NCBI GenBank assembly: GCA_945860865.1
Contig: CAMARW010000005.1
Coordinates: forward strand, 4,364-68,363
From: Chitinophaga pinensis
GTDB taxonomy: Bacteria > Bacteroidota > Bacteroidia > UKL13-3
Reading direction: 5' to 3'
Length of the DNA: 64,000 nt
Positions 51,295 through 59,964 of this stretch are shown here, piece after piece. The first letter of the stretch is position 1; the number at the start of each line of letters is the position of its first letter. A program made the position numbers and the translations under genes. The notes under the pieces are model-generated. The model made no database searches and was not told the DNA's origin. It was given only the letters and a program-made list of their open reading frames with translations.

Positions 51295-52230
51295 TTAAGC
51301 TGGTGCTTTTTCTGTTTCTGATGTTCCCCAAGCGGCTAATTCGCTCTCACTCCAAAGTTCTGGGAAGTAGATGCGTCTTTGAAAAGCTGGATGCAAATAC
51401 TTTTCCCAATGACTGCCACCAGTAGCTGTTTTGGTTTCACCTTTAGATTTTAAATAGGTTCTAGCTGTTTCCAAATGCACCATTGGCCAATCTATATTAT
51501 ATTTTCTATCAAATGCACGTAAGGCTTCTACCAAAGCAGTTTTGCCTGCCTCATCCAATTTAGGCAGCATGCTTTTGTATCGCTGGTTAAGGTTTAACGT
51601 TTGCATTTGTTCGGCAGTTTGAACAAATAATGGCATATATTTTTGTTCAAAATCGGTGAGCGTTTTATTTTTCTTGTTGGTTTCTCTATTAAAACCAGCT
51701 TCTTGCCAATACAACAAACCAAATTTATCTTGCAAGCTAGTTTCTGGCTTCACATGATTTCTTAAATAGGCCGGAATTAATAAATCTACATCTGTGCACA
51801 TTAATTCGATGAACCTAAATTGTGCCGACTGAAAACCACTTGCTGGTGATAAACTCAACCTGAATTTATTATAATCCTCATAGCTCATGCCTTGGTTCAT
51901 AATGCTAAAAGAACTGCTGAGTAAATCGGTATAACGTACCATTCTATATAATTTCTCAACAAACAAATTAGGTTCTATTTCGCTTAAGCACAATTGGTCT
52001 AATTCATGTCTAATAAGCTTTAAAACCAATTCTGTAATTTGGTGGTAAACAATAAAAATGGTTTCGTCTTTAAAATCTGTTCTTGGATTTTGTAAGGTAA
52101 GCAAGGTGTCTACCATCACATATTCCCAATAGTTTATAGCTCTATTGTGTTTTAATCCCCTTAAATAGTTCTCTGGGTCCTGACCGTTTGCTATTAACTT
52201 ATCTTTTATTTCTTGTAAAATATCTTCCAT
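51295..52230 (-). CDS. tryptophan 2,3-dioxygenase family protein
   Basis: 311 aa. A TDO-like helical heme enzyme with a YWEYVMVDTLLTLQ block that resembles the TDO Y..YL.LD.LL..Q region. Confidence 0.65.
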   Translation of the reverse strand: MEDILQEIKDKLIANGQDPENYLRGLKHNRAINYWEYVMVDTLLTLQNPRTDFKDETIFIVYHQITELVLKLIRHELDQLCLSEIEPNLFVEKLYRMVRYTDLLSSSFSIMNQGMSYEDYNKFRLSLSPASGFQSAQFRFIELMCTDVDLLIPAYLRNHVKPETSLQDKFGLLYWQEAGFNRETNKKNKTLTDFEQKYMPLFVQTAEQMQTLNLNQRYKSMLPKLDEAGKTALVEALRAFDRKYNIDWPMVHLETARTYLKSKGETKTATGGSHWEKYLHPAFQRRIYFPELWSESELAAWGTSETEKAPA

Positions 52231-52319
52231 CTTCTTGTTTTTTGTGCATTAGTTTTGTGGCTCAAATATTCTACTTTATTTTCAATTGTTTGAACCTATT
52301 TATTATTTCGCATAAATTT

Positions 52320-52994
52320 TCATGGATTCTGGACTTTTGATTTATACTCATCATGCAGTCCGATGCTGGCGTATATTTGATCTTTGTGTTTTTCAATACG
52401 CGCCAGGCGGGTGCTACTTTGCTTAGCTTGCGCAAAGTGAATCAAATACGCCCTTTGGCGACCAGGAGTAAGCGCTTCAAAAGCATTTTTAAAAAGCGGT
52501 TCCTTGTCAAAGCATTGAATCAACTCTTCTGGTATTATTTCTTTGTGCGGGGTAGGTGTAAGTTTTTTGCCCGATTTTTCAATCTCAATAGCTTCTCGTA
52601 TATACAGCGATAAAATTTTACCCAAGGCCTCAATCTCTTCTATTTTTACAAATTTTATAATTCTGCCTAGTTGAATATTTCCCTGTTGTTGCAGGAGTTT
52701 ATGCTCGTCTTTAAGCAAAGCACCTTTAAAAAAACTGAGATTGGCCGAGTGTTTTAGTGCATTTAAACTTGCAATATTTTTTCCCTCATAAGTATAAACG
52801 GGCACGCCCCATTTTATTTCTTCTGTAAGGCCACATGCTAAAACAATTTGCCGCAGGGTTTCTAATAGCTCTTGCCAAGGAATAACTTTGCATTGCGGAG
52901 TAGCACCATATTTACAGCGCATGCAGCCGTCTACCATGTATTTGTCTACAAGCGGATTGAAAACTAATTGAGTCATATTATTTTGAATTGGCAA
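52320..52994 (-). CDS. YdeI/OmpD-associated family protein with a DUF1801 domain
   Basis: 224 aa. YdeI-like N-terminal region (CGLTEEIKWGVPVYTYEGKNI...FFKGALLKD). An alternative start at 52976 is possible. Confidence 0.65.
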   Translation of the reverse strand: MPIQNNMTQLVFNPLVDKYMVDGCMRCKYGATPQCKVIPWQELLETLRQIVLACGLTEEIKWGVPVYTYEGKNIASLNALKHSANLSFFKGALLKDEHKLLQQQGNIQLGRIIKFVKIEEIEALGKILSLYIREAIEIEKSGKKLTPTPHKEIIPEELIQCFDKEPLFKNAFEALTPGRQRAYLIHFAQAKQSSTRLARIEKHKDQIYASIGLHDEYKSKVQNP

Positions 52995-53232
52995 GTTAAA
53001 ACAAAGGTGTAATAAAGTAAATACTTGCCAAATATATTGAAATTATTTTAAGCTAAATTGGTTCAGCAAGATGCATTTTTAATAGCTTAAATTAAATAAA
53101 TTTTTATAAATTTATATGAGTATGTTCGCCTATAGTTTAATTATTTTTTTCTACCCAAATTCAGTTAAATATTTAAAATTTAAAACATCATCTTGTTCAA
53201 AACATTTAAAGTTTGTTTGGGTTATTTAGTGT

Positions 53233-53502
53233 ATGACAATTCAAGATTTGGACAGGGTAATAGAAATGGCTTGGGAAGATAGAACTCCTTTTGAAGCCAT
53301 ACTTATGCAGTTTGGCCTGCGCGAATCTCAAGTAATTGATTTGATGCGAAAAGAATTAAAACGCAGCAGTTTTAATAGGTGGCGCAAAAGAGTAAATAGC
53401 GGAGTTAGTCAGAAACATTTGCACAAACGCAGCGATGAAATAGACCGTTTTAAATGTAGTAGACAAAGAAATATTACGCATAATAAAATAAGTAAACGTT
53501 AA
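53233..53502 (+). CDS. small conserved protein associated with photolyase clusters (TIGR03643-like, possibly DUF2805; from memory)
   Basis: 89 aa, basic at the C-terminus. It sits immediately upstream of the photolyase genes. Confidence 0.45.
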   Translation: MTIQDLDRVIEMAWEDRTPFEAILMQFGLRESQVIDLMRKELKRSSFNRWRKRVNSGVSQKHLHKRSDEIDRFKCSRQRNITHNKISKR

Positions 53503-53505
53503 ATA

Positions 53506-54609
53506 ATGAACCACCGTTTTGAGCCCAATATAAACGCTGTTTTGGAGCGCGTAGATGCTATTGATCCTGTGGCTTATGCTAAAACTAGAAATTACTTAAA
53601 CGGGGCCGTAACGTATTTATCTCCTTACCTCTCGCGGGGCGTAATTAGCACCCAACAAGTATTGGAGCGTTTAGTAGCCAAAGGTCACTCAATTCATCAA
53701 ATGGAAGTTTTGGTAAAAGAGTTGGCATGGCGCGATTATTTTCAACGAGTTGGGCAGCACAAAGATTTGGGTTCCGACATTAAACAACGACAGGGAAAGC
53801 TCAATAATTATCAAATACCCATCGCCGTAGTTGCGGCTAAAACCGGCATAGAGGCCATTGATGCAGCCATTTTAGGTTTGTATCAAAATGGTTATATGCA
53901 CAACCACCTGCGCATGTATTTGGCTTCTGTTACTTGTAATGTGGCACAATCGCATTGGAAAATGCCCGCACAATGGCTTTACTACCACTTATTAGATGGC
54001 GATTTTGCAAGCAATATATGCAGTTGGCAATGGGTTGCTGGCGCCAATAGCAGCAAATTGTATTTTGCCAATCAAGAAAATATCAATACGTATACGCAAT
54101 CTAAACAACGCAATACTTTCTTAGATTGCTCTTACGAAGACCTTCCAGATTTAAATGTGCCAGCGGCGTTAATACCACTTCAAAACATAGATTACCAAAC
54201 GGTTTTGCCACCTACAGATGTGCTTCAAATAAATCCCAATTTGCCCACCTTGGTATATAATTATTATAACCTCGATCCTAATTGGCATGCCACAGAAAAC
54301 GCCAATCGAATTTTATTAATTGAGCCTAGTCTGTTTCAAAAATTTCCGGTTGCGCCCCATTGCATGGCGTTTATGCTACAACTAGCTTCCCAAATTGAAG
54401 GCGTGCAAATACATGTTGGTAGTTTTCAATCTTTGCTGAACCTATGCGGTGGCATTAATGTGTTTTTTAAAGAACATCCGCTTAATGTGGGTTATGTGGG
54501 TGTGGAAGAAAGCAGAGATTGGTTGGTGCCCAATGTAAGTGGATATTTACCCTCGTTTTTTGCCTATTGGAACAAAATTAGTAAGCCGCTTTACGCGCAA
54601 TATAAGTAG
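53506..54609 (+). CDS. NewPHL-like photolyase with inverted topology (N-terminal FAD-binding catalytic domain and C-terminal capping domain)
   Basis: 367 aa. Residues 1 to about 210 carry cryptochrome/photolyase FAD-domain blocks (LSPYLSRGVIS, ELAWRDYFQ, TGIEAIDAAILGLYQNGYMHNHLRMYLAS, LLDGDFASNICSWQWVAG). There is no N-terminal alpha/beta domain, and a C-terminal region of about 150 aa of different character follows. Confidence 0.6.
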   Translation: MNHRFEPNINAVLERVDAIDPVAYAKTRNYLNGAVTYLSPYLSRGVISTQQVLERLVAKGHSIHQMEVLVKELAWRDYFQRVGQHKDLGSDIKQRQGKLNNYQIPIAVVAAKTGIEAIDAAILGLYQNGYMHNHLRMYLASVTCNVAQSHWKMPAQWLYYHLLDGDFASNICSWQWVAGANSSKLYFANQENINTYTQSKQRNTFLDCSYEDLPDLNVPAALIPLQNIDYQTVLPPTDVLQINPNLPTLVYNYYNLDPNWHATENANRILLIEPSLFQKFPVAPHCMAFMLQLASQIEGVQIHVGSFQSLLNLCGGINVFFKEHPLNVGYVGVEESRDWLVPNVSGYLPSFFAYWNKISKPLYAQYK

Positions 54610-54612
54610 CCA

Positions 54613-56109
54613 ATGTTCAAAGAAGATATTGCAGTTGTTTGGTTTAAAAGAGACCTTCGGCTTTTAGACCATGAGCCGCTGTTTTTGGCCCAACAATCTA
54701 AATTGCCCGTTTTATTGCTCTACTGTTTTGAACCTAGCATTATGCAATACCCCGATAGCGATGTGCGCCATTGGCGGTTTGTTTACCAATCTTTGCAAGC
54801 CATGCAGCAAAATTTGCAGCCCTTTAATACCCAATTGTATGTTTTCCACCAAGAGGCTTATTGGGTTTTTCAGCAACTTCAGGAGCGTTATCAAATAAAG
54901 CAAGTGTTCTCTTACCAAGAGGTGGGCACGCAAATTACATACAACAGAGATCTAGCTTTGGCAGCATTTTTTGGTTCGAACCAAATACGCTGGAAAGAGT
55001 GCCGATTAAATGGGGTAGTGCGCAAGTTAAAAAACAGAAAAACTTGGCAACAACGTTGGGAAAAAACCATGCTTGCTCCCGTGTTTAAAGTCGCTATGTC
55101 GGACATGCCTTTTTTAAATTTGGACACAAATTGGTATGCGGCACGTGTAGGTTCAGACCTGCCCCAAGCAATTAAAGAGGGCAACCCCGTGTTTCAGGTG
55201 GGGGGCGAACCAATGGCTTGGCGGTATTTAAACAGCTTTTTAAATGAAAGGCATGTGAACTATTCTAAGCATATTTCTAAACCAGCTCTAAGCAGAACGG
55301 GTTGCAGCAGGATTTCGCCCTATCTTACTTATGGTAATTTGAGTATGCGATTGGTTTATCAGGCTACTATTAAACAATATGCAGGTTCTAAAAACAAACG
55401 CGCCCTTAGCAATTTTATGTCGCGCTTACACTGGCATTGCCATTTTATGCAGAAGTTTGAAGATGAAATGCGTATGGAGTTTGAACCGGTAAATAGGGCG
55501 TATGAAGCTTTAAACAAACCCAAGAATGAACAATTTATTGAGGCTTTTGAAAACGGACAAACAGGCATTCCTATTATAGATGCTAATATTCAATGTTTGG
55601 TTCAAACCGGATATATTAACTTTAGGATGCGGGCTATGTTGGTTTCGTTTTTTGTATATAACCTTTGGCAAGATTGGCGCGATTTACATTTCTTAGCGCG
55701 TAATTTTTTAGACTATGAGCCCGGCATTCATTACCCTCAAATACAAATGCAAGCAGGATTAACGGGTGTAAATACCATTAGAATGTATAACCCAATTAAA
55801 AATAGTTATAGTCATGATGAAGAAGGATTGTTCATTAAAAAATGGTTGCCCGTATTGGCTAATTTACCAACATCACTCATTCATGAGCCTTGGAAAATGA
55901 CACAAATGGATCAACGTTTTTATGGCGTACAAATTGGGAAAGATTATCCTGCGCCCATTATAGCAATGGAGGCGAGCAGAAAGGTTGCCAGTGATGTAAT
56001 GTATGGCTTCCGCAAGGGAGGATCATCATCTGACCATGAGTTAGCTAAAGCCGAAGGCAAGCGCATCCTAGCCAAGCACACCTCCGCCTCGCCCCGCAAG
56101 GGCGGATGA
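54613..56109 (+). CDS. deoxyribodipyrimidine photolyase / cryptochrome-DASH-type protein
   Basis: 498 aa. N-terminal [16 protein letters not shown] and a FAD-binding domain ([29 protein letters not shown]). It has an odd C-terminal tail of about 30 aa, discussed in the findings. Confidence 0.85.
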
Positions 56110-56119
56110 TCATCCGCCC
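56100..56119. repeat. perfect 20-nt palindrome GGGCGGATGA/TCATCCGCCC that includes the photolyase stop codon
   Basis: Read directly from the sequence. It shares the stem GGGCGGA/TCCGCCC with the hairpins at 34685 and 34753. A degenerate direct copy lies 85 nt upstream at 56011-56035. Confidence 0.7.
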
Positions 56120-56137
56120 GAATTCGCAAACAAATAC

Positions 56138-56281
56138 ATGAAAAAACAAAACTTACCAATCAAAATCTGTTTAACCTGCAACAGGCCATATACGTGGCGC
56201 AAGAAATGGGAGAAGGTATGGGATAAGGTGAAATATTGTAGTAAAAAATGTAGTTCGAACCGAAATAAAATAAAAGCATGA
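56138..56281 (+). CDS. DUF2256 zinc-ribbon protein (not in the ORF track)
   Basis: 47 codons encoding MKKQNLPIKICLTCNRPYTWRKKWEKVWDKVKYCSKKCSSNRNKIKA. Cys pairs are CxxC...CxxxC and the WRKKW block is characteristic of DUF2256. The stop TGA overlaps the ATG of the next gene as ATGA. Confidence 0.75.
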   Translation: MKKQNLPIKICLTCNRPYTWRKKWEKVWDKVKYCSKKCSSNRNKIKA

Positions 56282-57753
56282 TAGGACTGGTATTTCCGAA
56301 TCAATTGTTTGAGCATAGTAAGCTCATTGATACTTGCAAAAAGATATATGTGATAGAAGAATATTTGTTCTTTAAACAATATGCTTTTCACAAGCAAAAG
56401 CTCGCTTTTCATAGGGCCAGTATGCAGTTTTATGTATCGTATTTATTGGCCCAAAACAAGGAAGTTGTTTATATAGATGCCCAGCATTTAGAGAGTGATA
56501 TTAGGCATTTTGTGGCGGCCCGCGCGCAAGAGCAGTGTAGCGAATTATGTTTAATAGATCCTACTGATAATTATTTAGCAAGACGCTTAAACAGCGCTGC
56601 CCAAAAACACCAAATAGCATTGGTTCAGCATGTTTCTCCTTTATTTATGAATACGCAGGAGGAGAACCAAGCTTTTTTTGCGGGCAAGAAGAGGATGTTT
56701 CAAACAGATTTTTACATGCAGCAGCGCAAAAAAGGCAAAATTTTGCTTGATGGCGTGGGCAAACCATTGGGCGGAAAATGGTCTTTTGACGAAGAAAATC
56801 GCCTAAAATACCCCAAAGATAAAACGCCGCCAACAACTCATTTTTTAGCGCCCAATGCTTTTTACCAAGAAGCCATAAAATACGTAAATACGCATTTTGC
56901 CAATAACCCAGGTTACCTGCAATTAAATACATTTTACCCTTGCACATTTGAAGAAAGCAAGCAATGGTTGCAAGATTTTTTGGTGCATAGATTTGCAGAA
57001 TTTGGTCCTTACGAAGATTCCCTCGTTTCCAAAGAATTGGTTTTAAATCATAGTTTAATCAGTCCGCTTTTAAATGCAGGTTTATTGTCGGTAGATAAAG
57101 TGATAGCCACAGCTGTAAAATTTGCAGAAGCGCACTCGGTACCGCTTAATTCATTGGAAGGATTTGTGCGCCAAATAATAGGGTGGAGGGAGTTTATTAG
57201 AGCCGTTTACGAGCAGGTTGGAACCATAGAACGAACCGAAAATTATTGGGGATTTACCCGAAAAATTCCTGCTTCCTTTTACACAGGCACCACTGGCATT
57301 GAACCCATAGATAACTCCATAAAAAAAGTGATAAAACATGGTTATGCGCACCACATAGAACGCTTAATGGTATTGGGTAACTTTATGTTGTTATGTGAGT
57401 TCGATCCAGATGAGGTATATAGGTGGTTTATGGAGATGTTTATAGATGCATATGATTGGGTAATGGTGCCCAATGTATATGGTATGAGTCAGTTTGCCGA
57501 TGGCGGCTTAATGGCTACAAAACCCTATATAAGCGGAAGCAATTACTTGATGAAAATGGGCGATTATAAAAAGGGAGAATGGCAACCTATTTGGGATGGA
57601 TTGTTTTGGCATTTTATGGATAAGCAAAGAGCCTTTTTTCTCCAAAATCCACGCCTCGGTATGCTAATTAGAACCTTTGATAAAATGGCTCCAGAGAAAC
57701 GCGTGCAGCACCTGCTTACGGCACAAAAATATTTGGATAGCTTAGCAGACTAA
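56278..57753 (+). CDS. cryptochrome/photolyase family protein of the FeS-BCP / (6-4) photolyase-like type
   Basis: 491 aa. The N-terminus (LVFPNQL...FHKQKLAFHRASMQFY) resembles the PhrB/CryB-type LILGDQL...HKQKLVLFLSAMRHF block. It is longer than the short photolyase neighbour. Confidence 0.75.
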   Translation: MIGLVFPNQLFEHSKLIDTCKKIYVIEEYLFFKQYAFHKQKLAFHRASMQFYVSYLLAQNKEVVYIDAQHLESDIRHFVAARAQEQCSELCLIDPTDNYLARRLNSAAQKHQIALVQHVSPLFMNTQEENQAFFAGKKRMFQTDFYMQQRKKGKILLDGVGKPLGGKWSFDEENRLKYPKDKTPPTTHFLAPNAFYQEAIKYVNTHFANNPGYLQLNTFYPCTFEESKQWLQDFLVHRFAEFGPYEDSLVSKELVLNHSLISPLLNAGLLSVDKVIATAVKFAEAHSVPLNSLEGFVRQIIGWREFIRAVYEQVGTIERTENYWGFTRKIPASFYTGTTGIEPIDNSIKKVIKHGYAHHIERLMVLGNFMLLCEFDPDEVYRWFMEMFIDAYDWVMVPNVYGMSQFADGGLMATKPYISGSNYLMKMGDYKKGEWQPIWDGLFWHFMDKQRAFFLQNPRLGMLIRTFDKMAPEKRVQHLLTAQKYLDSLAD

Positions 57754-58424
57754 AACCCTTTTTGAGGTTTTTGATACTTCTCTTTCAAAAGCGATTTACG
57801 CATGCCGCGTACTGATTCTAAAGGTGCTTTATCTATAAATAAATTAATAAGCCAAAGGGGAATAACCCCTCCAGGGTCTACTGCAATGATGTATTCGGCC
57901 TTACACAGTTTTGGATTTATTTGGGTTATGTGCCACTTAGCTTTCATAAATGGCACGCGAACAAAACCCTTTTTATGGGGTAAAAACTGAGCCTCACTAT
58001 TGGCGTATATAAAAAATTCTCCTACAGTTTTACTAGGTTCAACCCGCTGCCTAAAAGCGCCATCTCTATTCTCAAAGGGCCAGGGCACATACAATTCTTG
58101 GTAATAAATTTGTTCGAACCTATTTATTTTCTGCAATACATTCGATTGTTTACACCCAAATTGATAAGCCGCTTGCTCAGGTATATCTGTAATTAGCTGC
58201 ACCAATGTTTGTGCACTACACTCAAACTCGGCAATAGTCTTTAATTCTTTAATTGCCAATCCCGGGTAAGTGCGCACGTATACCTGGATTTGCTCTATGT
58301 TTTTTGATAGCTGCCAAGAGATTTGGGCCGTTGCCTGTTTTGATGAGAAAGGAAGAAATAACATTGCCATTAAGGAAAATTTTAGCCACCTCAAAATGTC
58401 AGTATTAAAGGATTTGTTTGTCAA
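57750..58424 (-). CDS. START/SRPBCC-like lipid-binding domain protein (secreted)
   Basis: 224 aa with a signal-peptide-like N-terminus. A START-like fold is inferred from sequence character only. Confidence 0.45.
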   Translation of the reverse strand: MTNKSFNTDILRWLKFSLMAMLFLPFSSKQATAQISWQLSKNIEQIQVYVRTYPGLAIKELKTIAEFECSAQTLVQLITDIPEQAAYQFGCKQSNVLQKINRFEQIYYQELYVPWPFENRDGAFRQRVEPSKTVGEFFIYANSEAQFLPHKKGFVRVPFMKAKWHITQINPKLCKAEYIIAVDPGGVIPLWLINLFIDKAPLESVRGMRKSLLKEKYQKPQKGF

Positions 58425-58666
58425 TATCTATTTAAATTAATACTGCAAATTAAGGTTATTACGAGGTTTTTTGTTTAGATTTAAAATGTTGGGCGCTATT
58501 TATTTTCATTTCCTGTAAATTAGAATTACAAATAAAAAAGGGTTGATTAGGTTAAATGATTTTCAATAAAATTTGTTTGGATATTTTCATTTAAACGCAA
58601 AAACGCTTGTCGCCAAAACCAAACAATACTTACTCGGTATTGTTGTTGTTATTGGAGTACTAACAA

Positions 58667-59380
58667 ATGGAAAAAACATTTTTGAGAGCAGATTGGGAAC
58701 ACCTAGTTATGGCAAATTACCGGGTAGATCCCAGTATGCTAGAGCCTTATTTACCGCATGGTGTGGAGCTAGATTATTTTAATGGCTCAGCCTATGTAAG
58801 TTTGGTTGGATTTATGTTTAAAAAAACAAGTTTATTCCATATTCCTATTCCGTTTTTTGGGTCTTTTGAAGAGATAAACCTTAGGTTTTATGTAAAGAGA
58901 ATAGACGGCAAAAAAATTAAAAAAGGAGTGGTCTTTATCAATGAAACAGTTCCCTTTAAAATAGTAGCCATTTTAGCAAACATCCTTTACAAAGAGCACT
59001 ATATATCTATCCCAACCCGCCATTCAATTGATTTGTCAGAAAATGTTAACATAAAATATGAATGGAAAATCAATCATAAATGGAATGCTATCTCATTTTT
59101 ATGTGCCACCGAAAAACATAAAATAGAACAAAACTCCATAGAGGAATTTATTTTTGAACGTTATTTTGGATTCACAAAACTAGACAAAAATAACTCGCAA
59201 GAATTTAGGATTAACCACCCCAAATGGCTAACTCAAAAAATAATAAAATGTGATATCAACTGCGATTTTACAGCCATGTACGGATCATCTTTTGCCGGCC
59301 TGAACCAACAAAAACCAGATTCAATCCTTTTTGCAAATGGATCATCTGTATCTGTAAATTGGAAACGGAATAAATTTTAA
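58667..59380 (+). CDS. DUF2071 (YqjF-like) domain protein
   Basis: 237 aa. N-terminal DWEHLVMANYRVDPSMLEPYLP is characteristic of DUF2071. Confidence 0.7.
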   Translation: MEKTFLRADWEHLVMANYRVDPSMLEPYLPHGVELDYFNGSAYVSLVGFMFKKTSLFHIPIPFFGSFEEINLRFYVKRIDGKKIKKGVVFINETVPFKIVAILANILYKEHYISIPTRHSIDLSENVNIKYEWKINHKWNAISFLCATEKHKIEQNSIEEFIFERYFGFTKLDKNNSQEFRINHPKWLTQKIIKCDINCDFTAMYGSSFAGLNQQKPDSILFANGSSVSVNWKRNKF

Positions 59381-59964
59381 GGATATTTTATCTGTACGAT
59401 GATTTCATTTTTTCTCCCAACAAATTGATAGGGGGCATTGTAACCCAAAAAGCGAAAATTTCCTTCATATTCAATGCCGTTTTCTTTTAAACTACTTTCT
59501 AATTTTTTAGCATAGGCTTTTATGCTCGTATCATCTGCATATCCGCTAAAGGTAATGGCTGCAACATATTCTTCTTTTGTAACAATTATGTTTACAGAAG
59601 TATCATTGGGCTTGGGTAGATTATTTTTCATGTAATCTGCTGGCATTACAAAACTCATAGAAGATTTTGATTCGTTTATATCCATATGAACCGGCGTGGT
59701 CATGGCAATTTTTGTATTAGAAGCATTGCCTCCAAAAATATAGCCAGCCAATTTTCTAAATCCGGGTGAAGCTAATTCTTTGTAGCTTTTGGCATTCATA
59801 CTTACGGTTGCCATAGTGGCTGCTGGGTAAAGGCGTATTTCAAAATCTTTTACAGTTTTAATTACCTTGTAATTTTGTGTTTCGGTTTGGGCCATAATTA
59901 AAAAGGTTTGAGATAAGAAAACTAAAACAGTAAGTAGGGCTATGATTACCAAAGATTTTTTCAT
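59377..59964 (-). CDS. SOUL heme-binding family protein
   Basis: 195 aa with a signal peptide and SOUL/HBP-like blocks (PGFRKLAGYIFGGN, GYNAPYQF). Confidence 0.75.
   Translation of the reverse strand: MKKSLVIIALLTVLVFLSQTFLIMAQTETQNYKVIKTVKDFEIRLYPAATMATVSMNAKSYKELASPGFRKLAGYIFGGNASNTKIAMTTPVHMDINESKSSMSFVMPADYMKNNLPKPNDTSVNIIVTKEEYVAAITFSGYADDTSIKAYAKKLESSLKENGIEYEGNFRFLGYNAPYQFVGRKNEIIVQIKYP

Follow-up and report, generated by a model that had tools for sequence, protein, structure and literature searches.

A compact cluster of three photolyase-family genes in a Bacteroidota genome and the linkage of the small DUF2256 and DUF2805 families to photolyase genes

Photolyase operons are already known in Bacteroidota. 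In Dokdonia sp. MED134, three photolyase/cryptochrome genes form an operon (MED134_10201-10211) that is up-regulated by light (bioRxiv 10.1101/2023.12.25.573297), and an operon of an SPL and an FeS-BCP gene was predicted in Cyclobacterium marinum (Xu et al. 2021, PMC8476157). Small open reading frames (ORFs) are not mentioned in the published descriptions of the Dokdonia operon, nor are accessory ORFs in the single sentence that PMC8476157 devotes to its operon. Here, we analyzed a stretch of 64,000 nucleotides from a Chitinophaga pinensis assembly (GCA_945860865.1, contig CAMARW010000005.1, positions 4,364 to 68,363 of the forward strand; hereafter the window), in which five ORFs on the plus strand span positions 53233-57753. 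The ORF listing gave the same coordinates as an earlier reading of this DNA from its letters alone (hereafter the sequence-only reading). We show that the cluster is a compact variant of a modular photolyase supercluster that is widespread in Bacteroidota, and that its two small genes, of the DUF2805 and DUF2256 families, are linked to photolyase genes across phyla. The five genes are:

53233-53502, plus strand: DUF2805/TIGR03643 small basic protein (89 aa, isoelectric point (pI) 10.6), predicted to be helical with a helix-turn-helix (HTH)-like core
53506-54609, plus strand: NewPHL/SPL-type photolyase (367 aa), with an N-terminal flavin adenine dinucleotide (FAD)/catalytic domain as well as a C-terminal Z-domain
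54613-56109, plus strand: NewCRY/DASH-like two-domain photolyase-family protein (498 aa), with its repair residues replaced
56138-56281, plus strand: DUF2256 (47 aa, pI 10.15), a predicted Cys4 treble-clef finger
56278-57753, plus strand: prokaryotic (6-4) photolyase of the subgroup without an iron-sulphur (Fe-S) cluster (491 aa), with a DPRP domain

The Dokdonia and window gene sets are both three-photolyase arrangements of Bacteroidota with a DPRP-type (6-4) enzyme. The Dokdonia order (DASH, DPRP, photolyase/cryptochrome) is that of two Polaribacter loci in our comparison (L046 and L062; compared loci carry an L number), where DUF2256 comes first. In the window, in contrast, NewPHL replaces DASH and the (6-4) enzyme is Fe-S-free; light induction was measured in Dokdonia, and by analogy with that operon the window genes may be light-induced as well. 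The Cyclobacterium prediction shares with the window a gene of the Bacteroidetes SPL subgroup ‘Ba’ co-oriented with a prokaryotic (6-4) photolyase gene. Beyond that prediction, NewCRY, DUF2805 and DUF2256 are present in the window, where the (6-4) enzyme has none of the cluster cysteines. The three enzyme classes, like the Pfam and NCBIfam entries for both small families, were known beforehand.

All five products match curated families well over the cut-off (Pfam, NCBIfam), in keeping with the earlier claim of three photolyase/cryptochrome-family genes of three different classes together with two conserved small ORFs. The start codons agree with the family N-termini (DUF2256 consensus MKKxxLPxKxC; DPRP profile from residue 4), and identical starts are used by independent gene calls on other contigs. 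The same five-gene order was found in L008, L011 and L070, a permuted order in L040, and the four-gene core of the cluster in L014, L037, L068 and L074; moreover, the identical cluster is present on six independent metagenome contigs, evidently from an uncultured member of Bacteroidota living in freshwater. This recurrence on separate contigs and, in identical or permuted order, among unrelated species shows that the arrangement is not due to chance.

The junctions were read off the sequence. The 89-aa and 367-aa ORFs are joined by TAA-ata-ATG and the 367-aa and 498-aa ORFs by TAG-cca-ATG. The sequence-only reading had given gaps of 1-3 nt here; the tight packing stands, and both gaps are exactly 3 nt. 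A 28-nt spacer precedes the 47-aa ORF, the stop codon of which overlaps the start of the 491-aa ORF as ATGA. This overlap had been noted before; we found it again, and it recurs in many lineages.

Gene 2 had been called NewPHL, and its topology, cyclobutane pyrimidine dimer (CPD) and flavin residues and Z-domain motif bear the name out. The features that define NewPHL/SPL include a C-terminal Z-domain of ∼150 aa that bears a GFF motif and a conserved Trp (PMC7736829, PMC8476157). In the 367-aa protein, a Pfam scan placed FAD_binding_7 at residues 70-201 and the PF00875 antenna domain was absent; that is, the FAD-binding helical domain is N-terminal and no N-terminal alpha/beta antenna domain is present, which is the inverted topology of NewPHL. 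The protein aligns to class I photolyases at residues about 227-396, and in the alignment to the E. coli and Synechococcus enzymes (1dnp, 1tez) E274, W277, N341, M345, N378, W382 and W384 (E. coli numbering) are all kept. The Z-domain motif reads SFF-x-W, with Ser in place of Gly, in the window protein and 16 Bacteroidota orthologues, and GFF in two distant orthologues (proteobacterial/verrucomicrobial). By these features gene 2 is classed as a bona fide NewPHL/SPL. Its CPD active site is intact, and by homology the enzyme is predicted to repair CPDs in single-stranded DNA; light-dependent CPD repair limited to single-stranded DNA has been shown for two enzymes only, those of D. shibae and M. 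mesophilicum (PMC7736829).

The earlier labels of the other two large genes failed. Gene 3, which had been read as a DASH/CPD photolyase, encodes a 498-aa protein with DNA_photolyase (PF00875) and FAD_binding_7 (PF03441) domains. It scored ∼128 bits on every NCBIfam class model, against cut-offs of 317-885 (TIGR02765 for DASH, 128.9 bits vs. 317; PRK10674 for class I CPD photolyases, 128 bits vs. 506). When the protein was aligned to Synechocystis DASH, the substrate and flavin-N5 residues were replaced (E274R, N341F, N378H at the flavin-N5 Asn, W382I and W384M), and the protein reads INFRMRA and GIHYPQIQM where DASH has MSNRGRQ and SNWGNW. The segments xRLxW, NFRMR and GIH-x3-x-x-M recur with minor variation in 30 of 30 orthologues from Bacteroidota and alphaproteobacteria, and the canonical residues are retained where these compared loci carry genuine DASH genes (MSNRGRQN) or class I genes (MHNR). 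Cry-DASH was ruled out by the sub-cut-off score and the replaced active-site motifs, and a class I CPD photolyase by the sub-cut-off score together with E274R, N341F and W382I.

The NewCRY class is defined by loss of E274 and N341 (Emmerich et al. 2020), and the same group was named DASH-like or prokaryote-specific by Xu et al. 2021 (PMC8476157). Gene 3 has R and F at these two positions, conserved in the 30 orthologues, and shares the two-domain architecture of VcCry2, the class representative. These diagnostic residues, together with the sub-threshold DASH scores, assign gene 3 to the NewCRY/DASH-like class. NewPHL and DASH almost never co-occur, but NewCRY and NewPHL do (Emmerich et al. 2020), and the window gene set, with NewCRY, NewPHL and no DASH, agrees with this rule. 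No double-strand CPD photolyase is encoded within the 64-kb window. To our knowledge, no function has been assigned to the NewCRY class; for gene 3, FAD binding and a role as a sensor, or action on some other substrate, are probable.

Gene 5 had been read as FeS-BCP. The 491-aa protein matches DPRP (PF04244) with 168.9 bits and Agrobacterium PhrB (4dja/5kcm) with 260 bits over residues 28-481, and in the alignment to PhrB it keeps the catalytic His-His motif (AHHIERLM). All four [4Fe-4S] cysteines (PhrB C350, C438, C441 and C454) are missing. The 36 full-length homologues formed two clean clades, 13 of the window type without the cluster cysteines and 22 of the PhrB type with all four. FeS-BCP is thus the wrong name for gene 5, because the cluster cysteines are absent from it as from the 13 orthologues, and with zero of four cysteines an FeS-BCP (CryPro) sensu stricto was ruled out. 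Fe-S-free members make up ∼30% of prokaryotic (6-4) photolyases and include PromaPL, of subgroup M (PMC9178010; bioRxiv 10.1101/366252). PromaPL has weak Mg2+-dependent (6-4) repair activity and, when expressed alone, very low activity and poor FAD loading (bioRxiv 10.1101/366252). Gene 5 shares with PromaPL and subgroup M the homology to PhrB, the lack of Cys ligands and the kept His-His motif; it is likened to subgroup M by homology and missing cysteines rather than by tree placement, and is classed on this evidence as a prokaryotic (6-4) photolyase of the Fe-S-free, PromaPL-like subgroup. With two enzyme assignments corrected, the cluster contains neither a DASH nor an Fe-S enzyme.

The 47-aa product of gene 4 matches DUF2256 (PF10013) with 70.9 bits vs. 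a cut-off of 25 (Pfam E = 9.6e-20). It has four Cys, 15 Lys and Arg vs. two Asp and Glu, and the Cys pattern C11-x2-C14-x19-C34-x3-C38, which fits the signature C-x2-C-x(19-22)-C-x3-C. Across phyla, identity is 55-80%, and C14, W20, R21, K22, K23, W24, E25, W28, V31, K32, Y33, C34, S35 and C38 are invariant, giving the block WRKKWE-x2-W-x2-VKYCS-x2-C. The Pfam TRASH clan takes in DUF2256 together with zf-FCS, DUF329/YacG, MYND and L24e (PMC4047054). The AlphaFold2 (AF2) model (predicted local distance difference test (pLDDT) 77) shows a hairpin and a helix, and its top Foldseek matches, each below significance, were an FCS finger, gyrase-bound YacG and eL24/Rlp24. The protein had been called a zinc ribbon; its signature points rather to a Cys4 treble-clef finger of the TRASH clan, which would bind zinc. 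DUF2256 and the YacG (DUF329)/FCS fingers have in common the treble-clef signature C-x2-C...(F/Y)CS-x2-C, small size and the clan, and YacG is likewise a stand-alone mini-protein, which docks on a DNA enzyme (gyrase). DUF2256 differs from YacG in its strongly basic character and in an invariant motif of its own, WRKKWE-x2-W, and its score to YacG is not significant (E of about 0.7).

The DUF2256 family has 2431 representatives; the best 150 of these are all 48-126 aa long and stand-alone. Two representatives, P0266 (120 aa) and P0267 (92 aa), carry two tandem finger copies each. Long DUF2256 ORFs in L013, L023 and L058 were considered as fusions and rejected, as they are over-extended frames with no other domain. 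Gene callers skipped the DUF2256 ORF on all public contigs of this organism (L085-L090), and the exact window sequence is missing from a collection of 15 billion proteins in which the other four cluster proteins are present. A leader peptide or upstream ORF was rejected on the invariant Cys/Trp/Lys core across phyla and on the position of DUF2256 either upstream or downstream of the enzyme.

The 89-aa product of gene 1 matches PF10985 (DUF2805) with 115.3 bits vs. 22.5 (E = 1.6e-33) and TIGR03643 (NCBIfam) with 109.1 bits vs. a cut-off of 66.55 over residues 5-77. With a pI of 10.6 it is basic, as had been said. More than 8000 homologues were found, with ∼80% identity within Bacteroidota and ∼55% in other phyla, and the core (D)RIIEMAWEDRT(P)F...WR.R..(G)..TKH is invariant from Bacteroidota to cyanobacteria and Verrucomicrobia. 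In the AF2 model (pLDDT 74.5), four helices are predicted, the middle part of which resembles an HTH. Searches by structure and by sequence gave no significant relative of DUF2805, and the PDB profile search was empty. The original TIGRFAMs comment on TIGR03643 reportedly notes frequent adjacency to photolyase genes. Among the papers searched, none treats the function of DUF2256, DUF2805 or TIGR03643 or their linkage to photolyases, in keeping with the earlier statement that neither small protein had a known function. A rare DUF2805-NudC fusion architecture has been listed (PMC6856373).

The sequence-only reading had proposed a comparison of gene neighbourhoods, and its outcome was strongly positive. 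DUF2256 was used as the anchor with one genome per species; at least 594 species were matched and 80 loci, representing six or more phyla, were kept, from Bacteroidota, SAR86 and other Gammaproteobacteria, Alphaproteobacteria, Verrucomicrobia, Planctomycetes and Blastocatellia (Acidobacteria). A photolyase-family gene lay within the 10-kb flanks in 57 of the 80 loci, and on the same strand within 400 nt in 48. When 92 loci were scored, a (6-4) photolyase of either Fe-S type was the immediate neighbour, on either side, in 42, NewCRY lay directly upstream of DUF2256 in 16, and DASH directly downstream in 6. Twelve of 45 downstream junctions of DUF2256 were exactly -4 nt. A role of DUF2256 as replacement for a lost Fe-S cluster was rejected, for it adjoins cysteine-bearing PhrB-type enzymes at least as often. 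Examples from cultured bacteria are:

Rhizobium plasmid: FeS-BCP-type enzyme, then DUF2256
Acinetobacter plasmid: FeS-BCP, then DUF2256
Pseudomonas aestiva: (6-4) enzyme, then DUF2256
Salinivibrio: NewCRY, then DUF2256

For DUF2805, a photolyase gene was nearby in four of the five Bacteroidota lineages examined. In a sample of 80 metagenome loci, biased to phyla other than Bacteroidota, a photolyase-family gene was present in 23 (∼29%; 12/41 among loci of at least 8 kb). By our own estimate (∼3 such genes per ∼3000-gene genome), a random gene would have a photolyase neighbour in ∼1-2% of cases. On six freshwater contigs (L155, L156, L157, L162, L167 and L168), a three-gene unit DUF2805-FeSBCP-DUF2256 recurs, in which the DUF2805 stop overlaps the enzyme start and DUF2256 follows 3-9 nt further on. 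In L017, L019, L030, L041 and L092, DUF2805 and DUF2256 lie next to one another with no enzyme gene flanking them. Linkage to photolyase genes is strong for DUF2256 and looser for DUF2805.

Clustering of all neighbours showed that Flavin_Reduct recurs in 26 loci, SDR in 14 and DUF2452 in 10. DUF2071 lies inside the photolyase cluster in 11 DUF2256 loci, usually between NewCRY and DUF2256, and ABC1 kinase, TetR, a DUF2867 NAD-binding protein, amine-oxidase-like FAD enzymes and GTP cyclohydrolase I are further recurrent neighbours. In Flavobacterium, a nine-gene order was found (DUF2805-DUF2452-Flavin_Reduct-NewCRY-DUF2071-DUF2256-FeSBCP-DASH-(DUF2867)), and the nearest relatives of the window have the order (DUF2805)-NewPHL-Flavin_Reduct-NewCRY-DUF2256-(6-4, no Fe-S). 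Flavin_Reduct lies between NewPHL and NewCRY or directly before DUF2256 in L014, L037, L068, L070, L074, L008 and L011. At the window NewPHL/NewCRY junction (54609-54613), 3 nt long, no flavin reductase is inserted, and no flavin reductase homologue was found anywhere in the 64-kb window. Within L001-L080, the usual companion of NewPHL is the Fe-S-free (6-4) enzyme and that of true DASH (MSNRGRQN) is FeS-BCP, with L046, L012 and L042 as exceptions. The window cluster is one of these island configurations, NewPHL with Fe-S-free (6-4) as opposed to DASH with FeS-BCP.

The flanking genes in the window belong to DUF1801/OmdA, START, DUF2071 and SOUL (Pfam), and those outside the cluster include:

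51295-52230, minus strand: tryptophan 2,3-dioxygenase-like gene (96 bits, far under the family cut-off of 390.7)
58667-59380, plus strand: DUF2071 gene (Pfam E = 3.5e-49), just outside the cluster
59377-59964: SOUL haem-binding gene, downstream of the cluster

The DUF2071 gene is a probable displaced member of the wider supercluster. Upstream of the cluster, the DUF1801/OmdA gene is accompanied by the tryptophan 2,3-dioxygenase-like gene, which, like the SOUL gene, may be a haem-related neighbour of a light-stress island. A DUF1801/OmdA gene also adjoins a (6-4) photolyase cluster in L091 and L092. In L081 (Acinetobacter sp. plasmid pYUSHP14-1, NZ_CP090068.1 79889-92110), TIGR03643 is convergent with the DUF2256 and FeSBCP genes, and the adjoining genes are nudC, lipocalin, acyl-CoA desaturase, FAD oxidoreductase and DUF1365. 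Proteobacterial gene sets for photo-oxidative stress of the sigma-E/ChrR type include a photolyase, and L081 resembles them in photolyase genes clustered with SDR, FAD-oxidoreductase, DUF1365 and desaturase/cyclopropane-type genes. The window is unlike them, with no extracytoplasmic function (ECF) sigma/anti-sigma pair.

Candidate expression signals at the cluster are:

52988-53031: inverted repeat TTGGCAAGT-N26-ACTTGCCAA at the start of the DUF1801/OmdA gene, overlapping the minus-strand box below
52995-53232: divergent AT-rich intergenic region (29% GC), presumed to hold the operon promoter
53029-53036, minus strand: -7 box TATATTTG, serving the divergent DUF1801/OmdA gene
56100-56119, plus strand: GGGCGGATGATCATCCGCCC, a perfect palindrome of 20 nt that spans the stop codon of NewCRY and is unique in the window

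The Bacteroidetes -7 box TAnnTTTG occurs in the window at chance level. A promoter and terminator consensus scan gave counts at or below the shuffled expectation with a sigma-70 model, which is unsuited to Bacteroidota; its terminator-like sites were at chance level overall, with none at any cluster junction. An Rfam scan of 52000-59500 gave nothing meaningful. As RNA, GGGCGGATGATCATCCGCCC would form a hairpin with an 8-bp stem and no U tract (minimum free energy -17.1 kcal/mol in a 91-nt context, z = -1.8). It sits in the only sizeable gap of the cluster, in surroundings of 38% GC. In relatives, the two genes at this junction overlap by 4 nt, and the hairpin is therefore lineage-specific; it may attenuate or stabilise the transcript.

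A second palindrome, TTGTTTAA-N16-TTAAACAA, was found in Flavobacteriales as a single copy in each locus, 3-60 nt upstream of the leading supercluster gene, whichever gene this is (DUF2805, SDR, TetR, DUF2452, NewCRY or Flavin_Reduct). Its left arm TTGTTTAA abuts a TAnnTTTG -7 box, and 11 copies were observed vs. 0.1 expected in 2.15 Mb:

L008:1933-1964, L011:2835-2866, L018:3361-3392, L022:4543-4574, L026:7376-7407 and L027:7662-7694
further copies at L034:7103-7134, L046:7882-7913, L051:8397-8428, L059:874-905 and L179:21-52

We regard it as a candidate operator, to which the clustered TetR-family protein may bind. The palindrome is absent from the window, even when three mismatches are allowed in the intergenic region.

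Photolyases are textbook single-protein repair enzymes, and we know of no accessory subunit for any bacterial one. We favour the view that the two small proteins are functional components of the photoreactivation pathway and not annotation noise. In our preferred reading, to which we give a probability of roughly 0.55, 53233-57753 would be a single co-directional, co-transcribed photoreactivation operon, the three large genes of which would supply complementary flavoenzymes (NewPHL/SPL, NewCRY/DASH-like and Fe-S-free (6-4) photolyase). DUF2256 would be made in fixed ratio with the downstream (6-4) photolyase through termination-reinitiation at the ATGA; as a YacG/FCS-like zinc finger, it would most probably dock on DNA and/or the enzyme and assist or modulate lesion handling. 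DUF2805 would be a small, helical, HTH-like protein, the second nucleic-acid-binding component of the same process. The junction geometry makes translational coupling and a single transcript for the five genes plausible, and termination-reinitiation would be especially useful here because Bacteroidota are largely without Shine-Dalgarno-driven initiation.

Several observations weigh against this reading. No exact TAnnTTTG box lies on the plus strand upstream of 53233, where the promoter was not located, and the two halves of the cluster could be partly uncoupled by the hairpin of -17 kcal/mol that lies between genes 3 and 4. About 30% of DUF2256 loci have no nearby photolyase gene, with stand-alone copies on Pantoea, Deinococcus and Vibrio replicons. 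The same holds for ∼70% of DUF2805 loci, including those on Vibrio, Nostoc and Pseudoalteromonas plasmids. The class of the enzyme that adjoins DUF2256 varies, and one specific protein partner is disfavoured for that reason. Fusions of DUF2256 to an enzyme were not seen among the best 150 of 2431 representatives, Foldseek gave DUF2256 no statistically significant fold match, and the fold matches of DUF2805 were weak, to HTH proteins only and not significant (E > 3). Characterised prokaryotic (6-4) photolyases (PMC9178010) and NewPHLs (PMC7736829) act in vitro without a partner, so neither small protein is needed for catalysis. A broader claim, that DUF2256 is a dedicated, cross-phylum zinc-finger partner of photolyases, chiefly (6-4) enzymes, which tunes repair by binding to the enzyme and/or to DNA that carries the lesion, with DUF2805 as a second DNA-binding component, is put forward as a tentative one, well short of even odds.

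The linkage might arise from shared regulation only, the small proteins being light- or photo-oxidative-stress genes with functions independent of the photolyases. The many stand-alone copies of the small genes would fit such a view, and so would the recurrent neighbours (Flavin_Reduct, SDR, DUF2071, DUF2452, ABC1 kinase, DUF2867, amine-oxidase-like, GTP cyclohydrolase I), the DUF1801/OmdA, START, DUF2071 and SOUL genes that flank the window cluster, and the nudC, lipocalin, desaturase, FAD oxidoreductase and DUF1365 genes that adjoin the small genes on the Acinetobacter plasmid. In 48 of 80 loci, however, DUF2256 directly adjoins a photolyase-family gene on the same strand, the two overlap by 4 nt in several phyla, and this placement is retained where other parts of the island differ; we regard mere co-regulation as doubtful. 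The small proteins could instead regulate the cluster, with DUF2805 as an HTH factor, possibly under a NewCRY photoreceptor, and DUF2256 as a zinc-finger co-regulator. In favour of this, DUF2805 comes first in the window cluster, as it does in many loci; a three-helix, HTH-like core is seen in its model; all its weak fold matches are DNA-binding HTH proteins; NewCRY has lost substrate-binding residues; and there is no other regulator gene in the window's cluster. Those matches are not significant, however, and the profile search of the PDB was empty; most DUF2805 genes are not near photolyase genes; and in Flavobacteriales the operator-like palindrome precedes any first gene and a TetR-family gene is frequent, which argues for a different regulator there; and the palindrome is absent from the window. 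A regulatory role of the two proteins is improbable in our judgement.

Redox chemistry offers another account, in which DUF2256 is a Cys4 redox or metal-delivery partner that, with the clustered flavin reductase, keeps the photolyase flavin reduced. Its four invariant Cys, three invariant Trp at i, i+4 and i+8 (W20, W24, W28), and the Flavin_Reduct gene directly beside DUF2256 in many loci are in line with this, as are the metal-handling domains of the TRASH clan (PMC4047054) and the poor activity and FAD loading of PromaPL expressed alone (bioRxiv 10.1101/366252). DUF2256 is, however, extremely basic, which rubredoxin-type carriers are not; the shapes nearest to it are those of RNA- or protein-binding zinc fingers; the window is without any flavin reductase gene; and DUF2256 adjoins Fe-S-containing enzymes as often as Fe-S-free ones. 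We give this account very little credence and prefer the reading of one photoreactivation operon with DUF2256 made alongside the (6-4) photolyase.

If the small proteins were only co-regulated stress genes, the finding would shrink to an ordinary, already sequenced operon. If DUF2256 is a dedicated partner, in vitro work on these enzymes would have been done without a physiological subunit, and the missing partner could help to explain why, for example, the Fe-S-free PromaPL was ∼30,000-fold less active when expressed alone. Prokaryotic (6-4) photolyases are evolutionarily basal, and DUF2256 is a concrete candidate, testable at little cost, for a component missing from accounts of photoreactivation or its control.

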